From NCBI GenBank assembly GCA_008369845.1, contig MRSU01010452.1, positions 62,001 through 94,907 of the forward strand: 32,907 nucleotides of DNA. Reading direction: 5' to 3'. This DNA comes from Trichomonas gallinae (Eukaryota). The notes under the pieces are model-generated. The model was not told where the DNA came from. It ran no database searches and worked only from the letters and a program-made list of their open reading frames with translations. This document shows, in pieces, positions 13,941 to 32,760 of the stretch. Positions within the stretch are counted from its first letter, which is position 1; each line of letters begins with the position of its first letter. Made by a program: the position numbers and the translations under genes.

Positions 13941-14720
13941 TGGCCTATTAGACCAACTATCAAAATTGGGCTGTTTTTGGCCTCTTTATTATGTGTATTA
14001 ATCATTTATTTCATCAAAATGCCATGAAGTCATATGATAGAATTTTTTTTTGATAAATTATTTAGTGTGATCATTTTCTAGTTGTAAAATAGCTTGATTT
14101 TCAATAATACTGATATTCTTTTGTTGTACATATGTTTTTCCACATGATCTATTTTTTGATTCGATATCATGCCTAATAGATCAATTAATTATCAAAATTG
14201 TGCTATTTTTGGCTACTTTATTGGGTGTATTCACCATTTATTTCATCAAAATGTCAATTGATAGAATTATTTTTTGATTATTCGCTAATTGAAACTATTT
14301 TCTAGTTGATACATAGTCTAGTTCTCAGTAACACTGATATTCTTTTGTTGTACTTATGTTTTTCCATATGATCTATTTTTTGATTCGATTTACTTTTACT
14401 AGTTCATTTTCTAGTTATTAAATTGCAAGTAATAGTTTATCATGCATATATTTGCTTTGCCAAACGAAAGCACAAATTATATATGAAATGTATGTTGAAT
14501 TGATTGTTATCATACTTCTCTAATTGTAAAATAACTCAATTTTCAGTGCTTCTTATAAATTTTTGCGTTGTATATGTTATTCCATATAATCTATTTTTCT
14601 TTTGATATTATTTAGGTCTAATAAATCAACTATCAAAATATGTGTAGTTTTTGGACTATTTATGTGTATTCATCATTTATTTTATTAAAAAACAATGAAG
14701 TAATTTGATAAAATTAATTT
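13941..14720. repeat. Degenerate ~230-nt tandem duplication (about 3-3.5 copies) in a divergent intergenic region
   Basis: YTATCAAAAT..G...TTTTTGG...TGTATT.A.CATTTATTT recurs near 13957, 14189 and 14630. CTGATATTCTTTTGTTGTAC.TATGTTTTTCCA.ATGATCTATTTTTTGATTCGAT recurs near 14110 and 14334, with a weaker copy near 14560. Confidence 0.85.
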
Positions 14721-14945
14721 TAATCATTTTGTTCATTAATATCATTTTGTAATTGTAAAATGACATGTGATAGTTGTTTACTATACATATACTTGCTTTG
14801 CAAAGTACATGATACAATATTAATTGAATCTCATGCATAAGAAGTTTTTTACGTGACAAAATATTAATTTTACGTGACAAAAATAAATGAAAGGTTTACA
14901 AATTTTGATGCATCATCTAATTAAAATAATTTATTGGGCCGAAAA

Positions 14946-16514
14946 ATGTCTGTTTATCCAGAATATGGCTTTCCAACTCTGATACTACCTCCAAAGACAC
15001 ATAACAAGAAGATCCTTCCACGTCTTGACTGCGAAGGACTCGATGACATCCCATTTGAAACAGTTATTCTCCCTCAGACAAATTTTGTTTCCATAGAAAC
15101 AATTTTTGATGAAGAAGACCTACTCGAACTTGAAGATGAAATCAAATACAATTTATTGCCAATTGGAAACAAATCATGTTCCTGGCTAGAGGTTCCTATC
15201 ATCGAATTTCATGAAATTTCAATTCTTGAACAAAATCAATCAATTGACCTTGCATTACTGGAATATGAGACATTTAAGACGCATGAGTACATTGGTAGCC
15301 ATCTTAGTTTACTGAAATCAAAGAAATTACAAGCTTTTCTAGATATCCCAATTGATTTTCAATATCTCGTAAATGATGATCATCCATTGAAACAAGATTC
15401 AGACAAGATGCTCAATATCTATGTATTTGATGATACGCCTCCAAATATTTCTCAAAATCGATCAAATATTTTGCTTAAGAACATTGAAACAAAGAACAGC
15501 AAGTATAATGCAACAAAAAAGAATACAACGAATTCATTATCACAAAAAGATGAGTTAGTATTAGCAAAACCAAAAATTACATTCTATAACTCGGTTGAGG
15601 ACGTCAAAAAAGACGATCAGAAGTATGCTACGACAGCAGAGACAGTTAATCAATATGATGATATTAAAATTTTATTATCAAAGGGTATTTCATCAAAAGA
15701 AGTTACTGTTAAGAGGAAAAATACAAATATGGAGGCATCCAAAGAACCAAAATTGACTCAAAAACGCAATGATGAATTCACTAATCAAATTGAAGCCCAA
15801 TCACAATCAAAATCATCTTTATTTCCAGAACCACAAGGAAAAGAGCAAGATTTTGATATTCAAGAATCGCAACCAGAAAAAAATCCTGAAATTATTCAAC
15901 AAGATACTAAAATATCTGATTTGACAGCACCATGCATTGTCTGTGATAAATCATTTGAACATGATGAAGTTTTCCTAGATATTTTCAAAGATTGTCGAAT
16001 ATTATTTAGATCTATCAATGATCATCAAATTGAGCTCTCCCCCAAAGAATGTGTCATATTCAGAGACATATCAGTCAAAACAGTATCAAACAGTTTAAGT
16101 GTTTTTGACAAGATTTATATATTTGCTGTTGGCAACTGCAAAGATGCAATGTCTTATGCAACCGTCCCAAGATTGTTTTTAAGACAAGTTCAAAATGAAA
16201 GGGATGCCTTTATGATCATCAGATCTATGGCAAAACCACTTGAAGTTACAAATGAAGGAGAGACTCTCTTTGAATACTGTTTGTCGTTATTTCCGTGTGT
16301 TCCAAGGACAGTTGCATTGGACTGGCTGCAGAAAGGCAATCCAATATCAGATCCAAACTGCATCTCAAAGTTCGATGTTTGTTCATACATGTTCCAGATC
16401 GTCCTCGATTCCAAGATATACTTGCAATCAGGCGAAAAAGCTAAAAATCCATCTGTAAAGAGAATAGAAGCAAATGTCGCCAAGAAGATGCGCAGAAAAA
16501 AGACAATCAAATGA
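14946..16514 (+). CDS. Protein with a C-terminal XPF/ERCC4-like plus HhH-like region; SHOC1/Zip2-like candidate
   Basis: First ATG at 14946 (AAAAATG), low-complexity middle, and C-terminal IELSPKECVIF and ETLFEYCLSLFPCVPRTVALDWLQKG resembling recalled SHOC1 motifs. The ORF is secure; the family call is tentative. Confidence 0.5.
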   Translation: MSVYPEYGFPTLILPPKTHNKKILPRLDCEGLDDIPFETVILPQTNFVSIETIFDEEDLLELEDEIKYNLLPIGNKSCSWLEVPIIEFHEISILEQNQSIDLALLEYETFKTHEYIGSHLSLLKSKKLQAFLDIPIDFQYLVNDDHPLKQDSDKMLNIYVFDDTPPNISQNRSNILLKNIETKNSKYNATKKNTTNSLSQKDELVLAKPKITFYNSVEDVKKDDQKYATTAETVNQYDDIKILLSKGISSKEVTVKRKNTNMEASKEPKLTQKRNDEFTNQIEAQSQSKSSLFPEPQGKEQDFDIQESQPEKNPEIIQQDTKISDLTAPCIVCDKSFEHDEVFLDIFKDCRILFRSINDHQIELSPKECVIFRDISVKTVSNSLSVFDKIYIFAVGNCKDAMSYATVPRLFLRQVQNERDAFMIIRSMAKPLEVTNEGETLFEYCLSLFPCVPRTVALDWLQKGNPISDPNCISKFDVCSYMFQIVLDSKIYLQSGEKAKNPSVKRIEANVAKKMRRKKTIK

Positions 16515-16688
16515 TTCTATAAAACCTCTTGAAAGCATCAATGCACAAGCCAATAATTTGGCACATATCAGTATTAACTCATAAACAAAAAATATATGAA
16601 TTGATTTTCTTGGAATCCAATAGTTTCATACTTATATATAAATGCCTATCTAATAAAATCTATCTTTTACTAAAACTTGTTGACAAAT

Positions 16689-17411
16689 TTAATTGTAAGA
16701 TGAAAAAATACAATTATTAATTTTGAGATTCTTAGCAACATATGTGGCGTTATTGAGATGTTCATCGGAGTCAATCTTATTCAATATAGGAATGAATCGG
16801 CATTTCACATTTTTCATTTGGCCATTTTCGCTTTCAAGTGTATATGCAATATCTTTGTCATCGATGATCTCTTCTTCAGTTTTATGAAGCACTTCCATGG
16901 CTGTTGGCGCTCTATGACAAACATCAATCAATCTTTTTCCAAAACAATCCATTCCAGCTACTCCAATCACTAAAGTGCTTCGGGTGTGAAGAACTGGTTC
17001 ATGGCTTTGCGGGAATTTGAGCGGAAGCTGTCTCGATCCATCGGCCTCAATCACTAAATAGTCGCAAACAGAATCCAGCAAGTCAAAAACTGCTGGATCT
17101 GGTGGACCCATCTTGTTCGGACCAATCCTTGATCCAACTATAACTAATGAACCGTTTAATAAATTCTTGATCTCTTCGATGTCTTTTCCTTCATAAACTG
17201 GTTGCTTTGGATACATCATCGCAGTGGTTGTGCATAGGATGACTTTCTTATTGAGTTTTAGTAACTCATTCGATATTTCGTAAACAGTATGTGTTTTTCC
17301 GCCTCCTCCAACTACCGAAATGACCTCATGAGGACCCAGGTTCAATAGAGGGACAAGTTCAGGTGATGTTGATATTTCTTGTGTTTGATGGTTGAAAAAC
17401 CAAAATCTCAT
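16689..17411 (-). CDS. yqeC: Selenium-cofactor (selenium-dependent molybdenum hydroxylase) accessory protein YqeC
   Basis: VISVVGGGGKT, VILCTTT.M..P, DYLVIEADGSRQLPLKFPQSHEPV, VIGVAGMDCFGK and ILNKID form the characteristic YqeC motif series. First ATG at 17411. Confidence 0.9.
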   Translation of the reverse strand: MRFWFFNHQTQEISTSPELVPLLNLGPHEVISVVGGGGKTHTVYEISNELLKLNKKVILCTTTAMMYPKQPVYEGKDIEEIKNLLNGSLVIVGSRIGPNKMGPPDPAVFDLLDSVCDYLVIEADGSRQLPLKFPQSHEPVLHTRSTLVIGVAGMDCFGKRLIDVCHRAPTAMEVLHKTEEEIIDDKDIAYTLESENGQMKNVKCRFIPILNKIDSDEHLNNATYVAKNLKINNCIFSSYN

Positions 17412-17483
17412 CGTTTTCAATCTGCTTTTTTACGAAAATTTTGCCACAATCAAAAATATAACCTTATTCATTCAAAAATTAAT

Positions 17484-17618
17484 TTTACGTGGCAAAATTT
17501 ACTATTTACATGATATAAATCTTTTTTTACATGCCAAAAATCATATTTACGTGGCATTTTATTTATTTACATGACATAATAAATTTTTACAGGACAAAAT
17601 AAATATTTACGTGGCAAA
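17484..17618 (+). promoter_or_regulatory. Array of seven TTTACRTGNCA-like motifs at 20-21-nt spacing upstream of yqeC
   Basis: Copies start at 17484, 17505, 17526, 17546, 17566, 17586 and 17606. The regulatory role is inferred. Confidence 0.65.
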
Positions 17619-18210
17619 ATTAAAAATTCAGAGGAAAAATGATCGCTGTTGGCATTTCTTATCTATGGTAATGCATAACCGATGTCAACCTCTTTTATGT
17701 CTTATAGAGCATTAACAACTGTACCATTATAATGCTGTTCTCCAACAATTGGTTGTGTTTTTCTAAACTTAATGTGAATTTTATATATATATATGAGGTA
17801 TCTGAAACTGAAAATCAAATATTAGGAAGTCTACATATAAGGGCAGCACGCAGTATAATATACATAATCATAATTTTATTTTTCATATTTCATCAAATTT
17901 CATATCTATTTTGTGATCAAAACAACATCCTAGATAAAATATACTGGTTATAAATAGGTCAAATGCATAGAAATAGAATATACTCATTGTTAATTTTGAT
18001 TTTGAATTTAATATTTGTTTCTTTTTAACATTATTTGTATTGAAACTTTTCATCTGATCAATTGTTATGATTAAATATTTAGTTAATGTAATTCCTTCGT
18101 GTTTGATAATTATATTTTATTTTATTATTTTTTATTAGAAGCTATTCGAACAAATTGAGGATATAACTATGTCAATAATCATATAAAAAACTGATTCCAA
18201 TCATTTTCTT

Positions 18211-19629
18211 TTGAAACGTGTTTCTTTATTTTGCGATGATATTGAATTCATCCGTAAAATACAGCAAATTAATGATAACATCACAAGATTTAGATCATTA
18301 AGAACAGATAATTTCAAGTTTATAAGCCAAAGTAAGCCGGAAATTGGATATGAATTAAATTTAGCTGATATAGAGGAGATTTTAAGACAATTGATCCAAT
18401 TCATAGATGGCAAAGATGGAAACAATGTTATGCAGATCCTTGGTAATTTGAAATTTCAACTTGATAAATTAGATATCTTGCAAACTGCAGCTATAAGTCT
18501 CATAATAGAAAGCAATATACTTACAAAGTTACAAGATTGCATCCAAATAGAAGATTTAAATGTTTTTGAATCAGCACTGCAATTTTACCAAGCGATTACT
18601 AGATTTTCTACGCAATTAACACACTTAATATTCATCAATGGAACAATAGAGAAGCTTTTTCAGATATTTAGTTCAATTAAATTGTCATATTCTAATTATT
18701 TATGCGTATTACACATATTCTCGAATGTATGCTTTGATGTTTCTGAAGCTCGAAGTTATTTATTTGGAAATAATATAATATCTTTACTTTGCAAAACATT
18801 AATCAGTATTGATGATAATTCAATCATTGAGTCGATTCTTTTGCTAGTAAACACGATTTTGATGGATGATGAAGTTGTTTCTAATGAAGATATATCTTCA
18901 ATCATCATACAGCATTTAATTTCAGCATCAATCAGATTTTGCGATTTAAACAGTCAAGATCCAATTTCCAGCGAATACATTTTATTCCTTGTACTGACAA
19001 TGATATCAAAACTAGCAATTAAACCATCAAACACTTCAATGATCATTTCATCAAACTTCTTAGCAATTCTATTCGAAATATTTCCTTCCATGTACGGAAG
19101 AACATACGACGAGTTCCTTTATATATTGGAGATGCTCATTAGATTAGATTCATCGCACATGATTATCAATCAAATGAGAGAGTCCTTTGATTTCGAAGTT
19201 TTAATTAAGTCTGAGTCTAAATCGATTTTCTCCCTTTTGAACGAAATTCTTGTATTTGATCAAGGACTTGCTGAGCATTTGCTGTCAATAGGAATACTGC
19301 CAATCCTTAGAAATGCAATCGAAGAAGGAGATTTTCACGAAAAACTTTCTTCCGCTCAAACTTTGTCTATAATTGTACAGAATGGCGATGAGAACCTTGT
19401 CGAATATGTTATAGAGAATGAGGAGGTGATTGAAACATTATTGGATTTCAGCAACTGCGAGCTCCCTGTTGGAAATTTGGAATACATAATGATGGCTTTG
19501 GAAAGAATCAAGCAGTCGCCGAATTTCAACGAAGGCTTGCAGTCATTATACGAAAACTACGACTTTGATGTAATTAGCACCGAAGTACATGAAAGAATAG
19601 CAAATTGCGAAGAAGAAGAGGTATCTTAA
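18211..19629 (+). CDS. ARM/HEAT-repeat (importin-alpha-like) protein; start uncertain
   Basis: 472-codon helical Leu/Ile-rich frame with IFSNVCFD..EARSYLF and EEGDFHEKLSSA. First ATG inside the open frame is at 18430; an upstream in-frame ATG at 18169 is cut off by TAA at 18184. Confidence 0.7.
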   Translation: MKRVSLFCDDIEFIRKIQQINDNITRFRSLRTDNFKFISQSKPEIGYELNLADIEEILRQLIQFIDGKDGNNVMQILGNLKFQLDKLDILQTAAISLIIESNILTKLQDCIQIEDLNVFESALQFYQAITRFSTQLTHLIFINGTIEKLFQIFSSIKLSYSNYLCVLHIFSNVCFDVSEARSYLFGNNIISLLCKTLISIDDNSIIESILLLVNTILMDDEVVSNEDISSIIIQHLISASIRFCDLNSQDPISSEYILFLVLTMISKLAIKPSNTSMIISSNFLAILFEIFPSMYGRTYDEFLYILEMLIRLDSSHMIINQMRESFDFEVLIKSESKSIFSLLNEILVFDQGLAEHLLSIGILPILRNAIEEGDFHEKLSSAQTLSIIVQNGDENLVEYVIENEEVIETLLDFSNCELPVGNLEYIMMALERIKQSPNFNEGLQSLYENYDFDVISTEVHERIANCEEEEVS

Positions 19630-22036: not shown

Positions 22037-22156
22037 AAAACGTATTTTTTGTCAGTTTTCTTTTTCTTTTTTCGCTATTTATTCGATTTTCATATCATAT
22101 ACATCATAACATTCACTTTTTGTAATATGATTATAACAAAATCCTCATTATTTGAA

Positions 22157-22560
22157 TGAAATTTATTTAAATTTGATTTTTTTAATTCATATTATGATTC
22201 TATTAATTATATATTTTACATTTTATTATATAATGATCTCAAAATTCTCTTTTTTTGAATAAAATTTTTAATTTTTGTGTTTTTAATTCATATTATGATT
22301 GTATTGATAATATCTATCACTTTTTACAATATAGAAATCTTAAAATTCTGTTTTTTTTTTTTTTTGATGAAATTTATTTAATTTTTGTGTTTTTAATTCA
22401 TATTCTTGTTCTGGTTATTATATATTTTACATTTTGTAATTTAATAACCTCAAGAATTCCATACTTTGAGTGAAAATCACACAAATATTTTATTTTAAAT
22501 TCATATTATGATTCTATTTATAATATATTGCTTTTTACAATATAATTGCAACAAAATTTT
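22157..22560. repeat. Degenerate ~105-110-nt AT-rich tandem repeat x4
   Basis: AATTCATATT(ATGATT) cores near 22184, 22285, 22395 and 22498, each followed by TTTTACA and AA(A/G)A(A)TT. Confidence 0.75.
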
Positions 22561-22910
22561 TGTTATATTGATTGAAATTTCAATATCAGTGTTTAAACTG
22601 AGACTACTATAAATGATAAACTATACTTCGCCAAATAAGTAAATCGTGTAGTGATATTTTATTGATTTTAATTGTATATTTTGAATGGTATATTTTATAG
22701 GTTTATGATCAAAGTTAGTATTTAAAATGTGGTTTTCAAGGATAAATTGTATTTGTTCTTATCAAATTTATATGTAAATCATATATGTTTTTAAATCTTA
22801 ATGACATTTAAAAATGATGTATGATCTTATTATTATTAAAAAAGAAGCAATGTTAATAAAACAGATACATCTTAGCATAAAACACATTTAAGAAAAAATA
22901 AAAAATAAAT

Positions 22911-28151: not shown

Positions 28152-28373
28152 TGCCACGTAAAGATCAGTATACGACATGTAAACTTTTATTTTGGCATGT
28201 AAATTTTCGGATTTGACGCGTAAAATATAATTTGTAAAGCAAAAAAAATATGACAAGTAAAATATTATTTTTGATATTTTGGCATGTAAATTTAATATGT
28301 AAATAAAAAAATATGCTAAGAAATATATGTTTGTCATGTAAAAAAAATATTTGTCAAATATTTGACATGTAAA
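28152..28373 (-). promoter_or_regulatory. Cluster of about eight TTTACRTGNCA-like motifs (reverse orientation) upstream of the LRR gene
   Basis: TGNCAYGTAAA-like copies at 28152, 28173, 28193, 28214, 28251, 28280, 28332 and 28363. Confidence 0.6.
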
Positions 28374-29592: not shown

Positions 29593-31752
29593 TTAGTCCG
29601 TAACCTTGAATTCAAGCTTGTGCTTGATATCGATTGAAGATTTGCCGATGTTGGCAATGAAGTCACCATTCTCAACAATGCGATTGCAGTTGGCATCAAC
29701 AATGCTGCAGTCATTGACGTTGATTTCAATCTTAACGTCTTTCTTCTTTCCTGGGCCGAGTTCTACGACAGCGAAGCCCTTGAGTTCCTGGCATGCCCAT
29801 GTTGCTGATGTGACAACGTCGTGGATGTAAAGCTGGACAACTTCTGTGCCTTTCCTCTTGCCGATGTTCTTGACAGAGACTGTTGCGACAATTTTCTCGC
29901 CGCGCTTGTAAACCTTCTTGTCGAGTTTGGCTGAGGAATATTCGAATTCTGTGTATGTCAAACCATAGCCGAACTCGAATCTTGGTCTCTCTGTCATGTC
30001 AGCGTATGTTGTTCCGTGCTGGCCTCTGACCTGATTGTAGTAGATTGGGAGTTGTCCGACATGGTATGGAATGGAGATTGTCAACCTTCCTCTTGGCTCG
30101 ATTTCTCCGTAAACTGCCTGTGCGAAAGCCTCACCACCGAGCATACCTGGAGAGAACTGCTGGATGATTGCATTGGCCTTGAATGCCTTCTTTGGAAGAA
30201 CCATTGGCTTCGATGAGATGACTGAGACGATAAATGGTTTTCCGCTGTCAGCAACTTTGTTGATCAACTCGCGCTGATTGCCTTGGAGCTTGAGTGTGGC
30301 TGTGCACCTTGTCTCTCCCCATGCGCTCCTCCTGTCGCCGACGACAACGATGATGACATCGCTCTGGTCGATGATGCTCTGGACTTCGACGGCGTTGAAT
30401 GGCTCGTCCTCCTTCTCGATTGATGCGCCGATAGAGTACTGAAGGTTTTCGCATCTCTTTGACAATCCATCCTTGATTGTGACTGATAACTCCCGTGCAT
30501 GAAGATTGTCGTCGAACATTCTGATTGGATGAGAGCCGCGGACCCAGTCGCCGAACATCGCTCTGTCGTTGTCAGCGTTCGGACCGAGCAGGCCGACCTT
30601 TGGAGTCTTGTCGAGTGGCAAGATGCCATCGTTCTTGAGAAGGATCAAAGACTCTTGTGCAGCTGTGAGTGCGGCAGCTCTGTGCTCTGGCGTGTTCAAC
30701 AGAGGCTTGTTCTTCTCGACGTCTGGATACCTGTCGTTTTCGAACAAGCCGAGCTGGAACTTGATGCTCAAAACTCTTCTGACGGCATCGTCGACGTCCT
30801 TCATGTCGATCTTGCCGTTCTTGATTGCCTCGAGGCAGCCTGGGTAGAAGTTTGGCGTCGACATCATCATGTCGTTGCCGCACTTGACTGCGAGTGTAGC
30901 AGCCTCTTCGTATGTGGCGCAGACCTTCTGGTCTTCGACGAGCCACCCGACGTTGTTCCAGTCTGTGACTAAGAAGCCCTTGAAATTCCAGTCATCCTTG
31001 AGAATGTCTCTTAACAGCCATTTGTTGGCTGTTGAAGGGATGCCTTCTGTTGATTGGTAGCCAGTCATGAATGAGCCAGCACCAGCTTCGCATGCGACTT
31101 TGAATTGTGGCAAGAAATAGGACAAAAGCTTCCTGTGAGATAAATCTGCCTCACTGGCATCTCTTCCACCTTGTGTCTCTGAGTAACCTGCGTAGTGCTT
31201 GGCTGTGGCAAGTACGTGGTCTTCATCGCTTGTGATTTTGTCGCCTTGGTAGCCTTTGATCATTGCTGTCGCGAATTTTCCGATGAGATAAGGATCTTCA
31301 CCGAAAGTTTCGCCAACTCTGCCCCATCTCGTATCTCTTGCGATGCACAAAACTGGAGAAAATGTCCATGCATTGCCTGTATGTTTCATTTCATTAGCTG
31401 TAACCTCAGCCATCTTCTTAATGATCTCCTCATCCCAGCTAGGAGCAATACCAAGCTGTGTTGGGAAGATTGTGGAGCCTTGCCAGAACGAATAGCCGTG
31501 AATTGCATCAATTCCGAACAAAACTGGTATTTGAAGCCTTGTCTTGCGAGCTTCGTCAATGATAGGCTTAATTTCATCACCGTGAACGTTTAAAACTGAA
31601 CCAGCGTTTTGTGCTTTCAAATTCTCAATGCAATTATTCAATCCATCGATCTGGACAAGCTGTCCAACCTTCTCTTCCACAGTCATTTGCGAGAGGAGAT
31701 CTTCCACGCGTGCCTCGACCGGCTGCGATGCATCCTTGTAGAGAGATGACAT
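29593..31752 (-). CDS. Glycoside hydrolase family 3 beta-glucosidase/xylosidase (BglX-like) with a C-terminal Fn3-like domain
   Basis: RVEDLLSQMTVEEKVGQL, DAIHG, RDTRWGRVGETFGEDP, AKHY, nucleophile motif LVTDW, LLKNDG.LPL, FGYGLTYT.F and EVVQLY. No signal peptide. Confidence 0.96.
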   Translation of the reverse strand: MSSLYKDASQPVEARVEDLLSQMTVEEKVGQLVQIDGLNNCIENLKAQNAGSVLNVHGDEIKPIIDEARKTRLQIPVLFGIDAIHGYSFWQGSTIFPTQLGIAPSWDEEIIKKMAEVTANEMKHTGNAWTFSPVLCIARDTRWGRVGETFGEDPYLIGKFATAMIKGYQGDKITSDEDHVLATAKHYAGYSETQGGRDASEADLSHRKLLSYFLPQFKVACEAGAGSFMTGYQSTEGIPSTANKWLLRDILKDDWNFKGFLVTDWNNVGWLVEDQKVCATYEEAATLAVKCGNDMMMSTPNFYPGCLEAIKNGKIDMKDVDDAVRRVLSIKFQLGLFENDRYPDVEKNKPLLNTPEHRAAALTAAQESLILLKNDGILPLDKTPKVGLLGPNADNDRAMFGDWVRGSHPIRMFDDNLHARELSVTIKDGLSKRCENLQYSIGASIEKEDEPFNAVEVQSIIDQSDVIIVVVGDRRSAWGETRCTATLKLQGNQRELINKVADSGKPFIVSVISSKPMVLPKKAFKANAIIQQFSPGMLGGEAFAQAVYGEIEPRGRLTISIPYHVGQLPIYYNQVRGQHGTTYADMTERPRFEFGYGLTYTEFEYSSAKLDKKVYKRGEKIVATVSVKNIGKRKGTEVVQLYIHDVVTSATWACQELKGFAVVELGPGKKKDVKIEINVNDCSIVDANCNRIVENGDFIANIGKSSIDIKHKLEFKVTD

Positions 31753-32760
31753 GAAAAATAATGATTTGACGGTTTTTATCGGGATTCTATAAAAAATATA
31801 AAATTTAAAAAGTGATAAAATTTACCAAACAGCATATTTTTACATATAAATCAATTTTATAAATAATTCATTTCTTGGTTGTCACTTTTTGGGATAGATA
31901 AATAATTTTAACTCGATCATTTTTCTTGCTATTTTTCATATAATATACTGTAGTCTGCTTATTTTTACTTGAAATGAGCGAATTTGAATTATTTTGTGAA
32001 TTTCGTAGTTTTCTCTCACGAACCTCTCAGATTTAATGCTAATAAGACTAGTTATGGCTGTTGAAAGTAGCGATGATCCGAATTTCTCAACTTTTCTCCT
32101 CCGACTTTTTTTCATTCAAAAATTGAATATAAGACGATAACCATTGAATTTTGTCAAAATTCACGAATAGAATTAAAAATTGGTGATGTTTTTCGCTAAC
32201 ATACATAAATATATGAGTATGGAGCAATGTTTACAAAAAAATAATCTCAAATTTTGAAATATATAAGAAAGCCAATCCATTCTTATTATCATTAGCTTCA
32301 AAATGTTTGTTAAGATTAAAGGATATTTGCGGATATTTAGGTGTATTTCTATCTAGAAATTGATTGGTTTGGTAAATAATGTGATTTGTAACCATAATGG
32401 AGCAAAATCACTCATATTATAAAATATTTTCAATATATTCAAAATGATTTTTCATGTTAAAAAGTATTTGCGGATATATTTAAGTGTATTTTTAAATATT
32501 TATAGATGTTACCGCATTATATAATGCACAGCACACTATCCAGCACAACTTCTGCATGCAAAATGCTACATTAAGAGTTATTATCCTTTTTAGATAAGAA
32601 AGGGTTTTGACATGTAAAATTATTTTGCCATGTAAAATAATGTTGGATGATATTTTAAAAAATGAAAATTTTATCATATTTGAGTTCTTTATCATATGAA
32701 ATGTAGTAATTTAATGTTAAAATTTAATTTTGTTTTTTAGGGGTAAAATTGCCCTATTAA

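Follow-up and report, generated by a model that had tools for sequence, protein, structure and literature searches.

The prokaryotic selenium-cofactor trait, which goes with selenium-dependent molybdenum (Mo) hydroxylases, is described by the genes for SelD, YqeB (TIGR03309) and YqeC (TIGR03172) (PMC2276186, PMC2432076, PMC11448449), and in the account of PMC9312934 it is marked only by the co-occurrence of all three. A reading frame resembling yqeC in a 32,907-nucleotide stretch of a Trichomonas gallinae contig (MRSU01010452.1; hereafter the window) raises the question of what a bacterial selenium marker is doing in a eukaryote. An earlier note on this DNA had proposed lateral transfer from bacteria and, possibly, a selenium-dependent Mo hydroxylase system. 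We evaluated the identity and setting of the gene, its origin, its partners and the function that its predicted fold suggests.

The coding sequence, defined by an open reading frame call and by family profiles, occupies 16689..17411 on the minus strand and runs from ATG to TAA over 240 residues plus stop, with no internal stops and no intron required, in agreement with the intronless gene described before. The protein scores 177.1 bits on TIGR03172 (cut-off 73.05), covering model positions 1-207 of 209, and 122.6 bits on PF19842 (cut-off 27.6). No family other than YqeC reached its cut-off for this frame among the Pfam and NCBIfam profiles. The profile search that the earlier note had called for thus confirms its assignment to YqeC with complete motifs and leaves no competing P-loop family. 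NCBIfam matches to MurE, DnaC and DnaA fell far under their cut-offs, and these identities were rejected. Each of the 10 columns that show no variation in an alignment of 150 YqeC sequences is retained, so that the window protein is a full member of the family. Its P-loop (Walker A), GGGGKT at residues 35-40 (17292..17309, minus strand), contains G35, G37, G38 and K39, each invariant in 150/150 aligned YqeC. The motif EADG at residues 122-125 (17037..17048, minus strand), which we infer to be the Walker B of YqeC, has E122 and D124 in 150/150 and G125 in 149/150, and is followed by the YqeC-specific motif KxPxxHEP at residues 132-139 (16995..17018, minus strand), with K132, E138 and P139 in 150/150. 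A putative guanine-specificity motif of the NKxD type known from GTPases, NKID at residues 211-214 (16770..16781, minus strand), is of a kind found in 97 of the 150 YqeC sequences and in all 7 trichomonad-type rows.

The composition of the gene is that of its host, as had been noted earlier. Its GC (0.383), GC3 (0.315) and codon choice lie inside the range of the 14 other window genes scored, and its codons fit a host model (-1.059 per codon) better than a Clostridium model (-1.303) and also better than a Blautia model; 13 of the 14 other genes are likewise closer to the host than to the Clostridium model. An A directly follows the stop codon, giving a TAAA context (16688..16691, minus strand) that may act as a trichomonad poly(A) signal. 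This context, which the earlier note had singled out, is present but not distinctive, since 7 of the 15 window genes scored share it, and it is ordinary for the host. Eukaryotic-type genes do occur elsewhere in the window (proteasome beta, CNOT11, DM10/EFHC, HMG box and CCCH zinc finger, by Pfam), as claimed, but the two immediate neighbours, a convergent gene at 14946..16514 (plus strand) and a divergent frame of 480 codons from stop to stop at 18187..19629 (plus strand), have no Pfam or NCBIfam match. The latter frame contains no in-frame ATG over its first ~80 codons.

Both neighbours are collinear with yqeC on an independent contig. A contig of 7,921 bp from run X1, which is recorded as a bird metagenome, shows identical order and strand for the proteasome gene, the gene upstream of yqeC, yqeC itself and the frame downstream of it. 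Its long coding pieces differ from the window by ~2-8%, which indicates another strain rather than the source of the window; as an independent contig with matching gene order, it shows that the window yqeC is not a chimera. Nothing was found in favour of bacterial contamination or chimeric assembly, the intronless state of yqeC being shared with the adjoining frames, which are also intronless as read. Against this explanation stand the collinear X1 contig, an ortholog in the T. vaginalis assembly, host-like codon use and the low identity (at most 43%) of named bacterial proteins among the best 120 matches listed, and its probability is negligible. The yqeC gene is an intact nuclear gene of a trichomonad.

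Among the matches listed, the best named relative is T. vaginalis TVAG_164520 (XP_001325565), which lies on a 40-Mb record and is 69% identical over its full length; it is an ortholog of the window gene, in one clade with it and, like it, a single-domain YqeC. The other matches listed were unnamed proteins at 98%, 84% and 50-54%, followed by bacterial-type proteins at 43% or less, the Clostridium YqeC proteins lying at ~40-43%. A second form of the gene, 84% identical to the window form, was found in run X1 at a lower likeness threshold, on a contig of 1,641 bp (depth 26.4 versus 25.7). This contig matches the window over the coding sequence only, with 143 differences in 724 nt, 0 gaps and unlike flanks. 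It is as long as the contig of the protein P0003, and its differences at 16719/16721 and 16732 give, by hand, F231 and M227 of P0003. Between P0003 and the window protein, 40 of 240 residues differ. Third-position changes account for 24 of the 40 differences listed (of ~135) between the two forms, and a rough dN/dS, taking 40-60 of the 143 as non-synonymous, amounts to 0.05-0.12. The second form is probably a paralog under purifying selection, the alternative being a gene of another trichomonad species present at equal depth. No related loci were found in the collections genome_contigs and viral_contigs with the single window protein as query, or in metagenome_contigs with the trichomonad alignment as query. 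Two small RNA runs yielded no matching sequence, a result that has no bearing on expression.

To place the gene among its bacterial relatives we used two sets of 86 rows. In the first tree the 8 trichomonad-type rows, 4 of them unnamed metagenome proteins, form a single clade (SH-aLRT 100) that falls among Clostridiaceae, Tissierellaceae and Lachnospiraceae with moderate support for its placement (87). In the second set, under a mixture model, 7 trichomonad-type rows, 3 of them unnamed, group at 100/100, with a sister group that lacks support. It is from the tree alone that the unnamed rows are taken to be trichomonad. The bacterial rows came from searches with the window query and are Bacillota-heavy, and the root was not inferred. 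The nesting of this clade among anaerobic Bacillota agrees with the lateral transfer proposed earlier, for which a phylogeny had been suggested as a check, and makes it likely that yqeC is an old acquisition from an anaerobe of the Bacillota. As a transfer the gene is not new: a supplementary table of 2013 gives XP_001325565 as transferred and names it YqeC (tree TN075; Alsmark et al. 2013, PMC4053834 supplement). Supplementary file 10 of that paper contains 'selen' three times, the XP_001325565 row alone concerning the selenium trait, and the supplement rows provide the name and the transfer call only, with nothing on orphan status, fold, second copy or wider spread.

The gene could instead have been inherited from an early metamonad that held the whole selenium kit, the remainder of which trichomonads lost. 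In the orthogroup table of PMC10703272, TVAG_164520 shares the YqeC orthogroup q2004869 with genes of Carpediemonas (3 genes), Chilomastix caulleryi, Ch. cuspidata and Ergobibamus, and among the eukaryotic sequences that we could place, Paratrimastix pyriformis PAPYR_3382 (P0350), a 1,486-aa model on a 769-kb contig, scores 151.7 bits on TIGR03172, above the cut-off. A clade joining the trichomonads to Paratrimastix is not rejected by the AU test (p = 0.06). The constrained tree is nevertheless worse by 49 log-likelihood units, and PAPYR_3382 groups with another bacterial set, two starred branches (100/96 and 95/92) separating it from the trichomonad clade; its identity over 177 columns is 33%, as against ~40-43% for the Clostridium proteins. 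A search with the Paratrimastix YqeC domain returned no named eukaryote among the best 120 of 377 matches. The trees were drawn without the fornicate sequences (Carpediemonas, Chilomastix and Ergobibamus). On this evidence, inheritance, which bears on the origin only, is unlikely, and acquisition from Bacillota remains our reading.

In bacteria, the company that yqeC keeps is plain. The nearest bacterial relatives of the window protein sit in gene clusters of the selenium-cofactor type: of 80 loci, 70 have yqeB nearby, 43 a Mo-hydroxylase and 25 selD; a selenium gene lies nearby in 71, partners are clustered with yqeC in 76, and mocA, xdhC or a Mo-hydroxylase is found near it in 67. Genome-wide, among the first 50 of these 80, selD is present in 48 and yqeB in 49. 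The window has no such operon; tblastn with seed sets for yqeB, selD, yedF, mocA, xdhC, Mo-hydroxylase and Sec-lyase gave no match in it for any of the 7, as the earlier note had stated. Clustering would be unexpected in a eukaryote, so that a window without partners weighs little against the trait. Carriers of yqeC that lack selD have been met with before: four prokaryotes with the HP2/EF2564 gene but without SelD were noted in 2008 (PMC2432076), the match of that gene to YqeC being taken from PMC2276186. Among our own loci, one Clostridium genome (G008; yqeC at L008:9992-10741) has moaA and no selD, yqeB or xanthine-oxidase (XO)-family domain, and may be a bacterial parallel of an orphan yqeC or an incomplete assembly.

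The question of partners is better put to T. vaginalis, the relative for which published tables are available and to which our statements on partner absence apply. According to PMC2874811 no SelD or SelB homologs were found in this species, which is said in PMC6759080 not to use selenium, and SPS2 is reported to track selenoproteins perfectly in eukaryotes in a survey that included it (PMC4561486). In single rows of the orthogroup table for 19 metamonads (PMC10703272, supplement file 3), no Trichomonas member is entered in the YqeB-type orthogroup q2004194, the SelD orthogroups q2009112 and q2009113 or the XdhC orthogroup q2003316, nor in q2002176, the other xanthine-dehydrogenase orthogroup, which is found together with the selenium kit. 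The rows do assign T. vaginalis 3 genes in the xanthine dehydrogenase/oxidase orthogroup q2001227 and 1 in the Moco sulfurase orthogroup q2001600. In a molybdenum survey the species is also scored positive for Moco, with three enzymes of the XO family and one of the sulfite-oxidase family (PMC6147048, Table S3). Elsewhere among trichomonads and their kin, xanthine dehydrogenase transcripts are reported as abundant in gut trichomonads (PMC10090643) and xanthine dehydrogenase proteins as detected in Histomonas (PMC6250841). By these tables, T. vaginalis possesses the client class of enzymes but neither the selenium donor nor YqeB. The earlier note had named an orphan gene, one without selD, yqeB and Mo-hydroxylase genes, as grounds for refuting its reading; in T. 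vaginalis this is partly so, since the first two are absent, but the species does have Mo-hydroxylases and a Moco sulfurase.

These data bear directly on the possibility that the window species runs a selenium-dependent Mo hydroxylase, served either by selD and yqeB genes lying outside the window or by a route free of selenophosphate. The near-constancy of both genes among the bacterial relatives, the XO-family enzymes of trichomonads and the apparent full marker set of other metamonads (below) argue for it, and the absence is read from T. vaginalis, not from the window species' own genome. Against it, T. vaginalis is entered without SelD, YqeB or XdhC and without the xanthine-dehydrogenase orthogroup tied to the kit, it has a Moco sulfurase, and the pair genetically required in Clostridioides difficile is YqeB and SelD. 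The selenium-dependent system envisaged earlier is therefore not supported in this lineage, and we consider it very unlikely in the window species.

The C. difficile genetics also bear on what YqeC does. Growth on urate and xanthine requires yqeB and selD, whereas deletion of yqeC has no phenotype (PMC11448449); the double mutant is only partly complemented by yqeB alone, so that some part for YqeC in the selenium route is possible. In C. sporogenes the enzymes are likewise SelD-dependent (bioRxiv 10.1101/2025.04.24.650524). In the literature that we consulted on the family, no biochemical function was found for any YqeC.

We therefore turned to the predicted structure of the window protein (pLDDT 97.2, pTM 0.93). 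The best structural matches were FtsY (Z 11.9, rmsd 3.0, 159 aligned), FlhF (Z 11.6) and SRP54, followed by Get3, MinD, GPN GTPases, CooC1, HypB and UreG, and Foldseek matched FleN and MeaB in addition. On this model the protein is predicted to be a SIMIBI-class NTPase with a P-loop, for which the NKxD motif would, by analogy, predict a preference for GTP. Fold, P-loop and NKxD are shared with SIMIBI NTPases (FtsY, Ffh and FlhF; MeaB, HypB, UreG and CooC1) at Z 8.8-11.9 and rmsd 3.0-3.8 Å over ~150-170 residues; the likeness is that of a predicted model and at the level of the family, not of function, with 11-18% identity and with KxPxxHEP specific to YqeC. A sequence search of the PDB returned weak P-loop matches only and no solved YqeC structure, and an Atlas search returned YqeC clusters only. 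The fusions of YqeC point to molybdenum cofactor (Moco): of 111 long YqeC proteins, 98 have a nucleotidyltransferase domain of the MobA/MocA type (Pfam), and the remaining 13 include 3 XdhC, 4 YqeB and 1 SelD fusions. Individual bacterial-type YqeC proteins (P0289, P0292, P0238, P0173 and P0351) are fused to SelD, YqeB, XdhC, a ModE-type DNA-binding domain and an amidase.

Together, the Moco-domain fusions, the SIMIBI fold with NKxD and the C. difficile genetics suggest that YqeC is a Moco chaperone rather than a selenium factor. These considerations allow us to propose a mechanism for the trichomonad protein. As an old acquisition from Bacillota, it would act free of selenium as a GTP-switched helper that hands Moco to XO-family enzymes, a reading that we favour at slightly less than even confidence. 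YqeC would bind and hydrolyse GTP and, so switched, would protect or deliver Moco rather than handle selenium; the Moco would come from the cell's own synthesis or from salvage from eaten bacteria, and the host Moco sulfurase would supply the terminal sulfur. Its clients would be sulfur-type XO-family enzymes, or its task cofactor salvage, and its role would be auxiliary and non-essential. The xanthine dehydrogenase orthogroup has 5 members in Tritrichomonas and 2 in Histomonas, both with Moco sulfurase, while neither is entered in the YqeC orthogroup (PMC10703272). YqeC is thus not needed for XO-family enzymes and is at most an auxiliary to them. Against a Moco helper stands the tight tie of bacterial YqeC to selenium (48/50 for selD, 49/50 for yqeB and 71/80 loci), and the Clostridium genome G008 does not fit an XO-family client, although it may be incomplete.

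These same observations lend weight to a different view, in which YqeC is what remains of a kit, whether transferred or inherited, and has taken up a job unrelated to XO-family enzymes, for example the maturation of another metalloenzyme. Parabasalids without YqeC retain xanthine dehydrogenase, G008 has yqeC with no XO-family domain, the SIMIBI class includes the metal chaperones HypB, UreG, CooC and MeaB, and the gene is apparently duplicated under purifying selection. The retention of every YqeC-invariant residue, which suggests an unchanged ligand, and fusion partners that are mostly Moco-handling domains tell against it. Such a change of job is possible though doubtful; a different client for YqeC is nearly as likely as XO-family enzymes.

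The distribution of the partners differs in other metamonads. There are six YqeC carriers, namely the five in the YqeC orthogroup of PMC10703272 and Paratrimastix from our own search. By the rows of that table, members of the SelD and XdhC groups occur in five of them and a YqeB-group member also in four, with none of the three groups in T. vaginalis. The Paratrimastix genome is listed there with YqeB-type, SelD and XdhC genes. Paratrimastix, Carpediemonas, Ch. cuspidata and Ergobibamus appear to carry SelD, YqeB, YqeC and XdhC; belonging to an orthogroup does not test family membership, and PAPYR_3382 is the one sequence that we inspected among these genes. Several of the data sets are presumably transcriptomes from cultures containing bacteria. 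Paratrimastix also makes selenocysteine (PMC10703272), so that its SelD is not diagnostic of the cofactor trait. Monocercomonoides and Streblomastix are entered in the same table with YqeB-type and SelD genes but not in the YqeC orthogroup. The selenium-dependent reading may hold in the free-living metamonads with the apparent full set. The full proposition, that YqeC is a GTP-driven Moco chaperone kept and duplicated alone in trichomonads, while free-living metamonads with the complete SelD, YqeB, YqeC and XdhC kit (Paratrimastix, Carpediemonas, Chilomastix and Ergobibamus) run the first eukaryotic selenium-dependent Mo hydroxylases, is somewhat unlikely as a whole.

A full-text literature search, with most subscription papers outside its scope, found no discussion of yqeC in a eukaryote, and 'yqeC' together with 'Trichomonas' gave 0 full-text matches. 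The orphan state of the gene, its probable duplication, a mechanism based on its fold and the way trichomonads differ here from free-living metamonads seem to be undescribed so far. YqeC is one of three marker genes of the selenium-cofactor trait and the one for which C. difficile offers no deletion phenotype. A eukaryote that keeps yqeC under selection without selD and yqeB would separate YqeC from selenium, and T. vaginalis would provide a culturable system in which to learn its role. Selenium use should accordingly not be called on yqeC alone. The full marker set in free-living metamonads, if true, would extend to eukaryotes a trait so far confined to prokaryotes.

Several minor features of the window accompany these results. 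Upstream of yqeC lies a degenerate tandem array of ~20-bp units (17475..17640, strand not assigned) that includes 6 copies of an intergenic motif of the host, TTTACRTGNCAWAA. With at most one mismatch this pattern, which was derived from the copies at yqeC, has 16 matches in the window against 0.44 expected, at 17484-17619, 2707, 14848-14882, 25862, 28190-28373 and 32605-32636. Six of the 16 stand just 5' of yqeC; the other 10 fall outside open reading frames, mostly 5' of a gene and oriented like it, and the motif may be a host promoter or a dispersed element. Many X1 contigs pile up at the array upstream of yqeC. Other degenerate intergenic arrays occur at 13955-14761 (period ~220-230), where the X1 contig differs, and at 22045-22578 (period 103 bases). 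No Rfam families or tRNAs were detected in the window. Finally, a bacterial-type GH3 beta-glucosidase is encoded at 29593-31752 on the minus strand (NF052331, 900 bits, under the cut-off of 1330; GC3 0.56), and is possibly another transferred, highly expressed gene.
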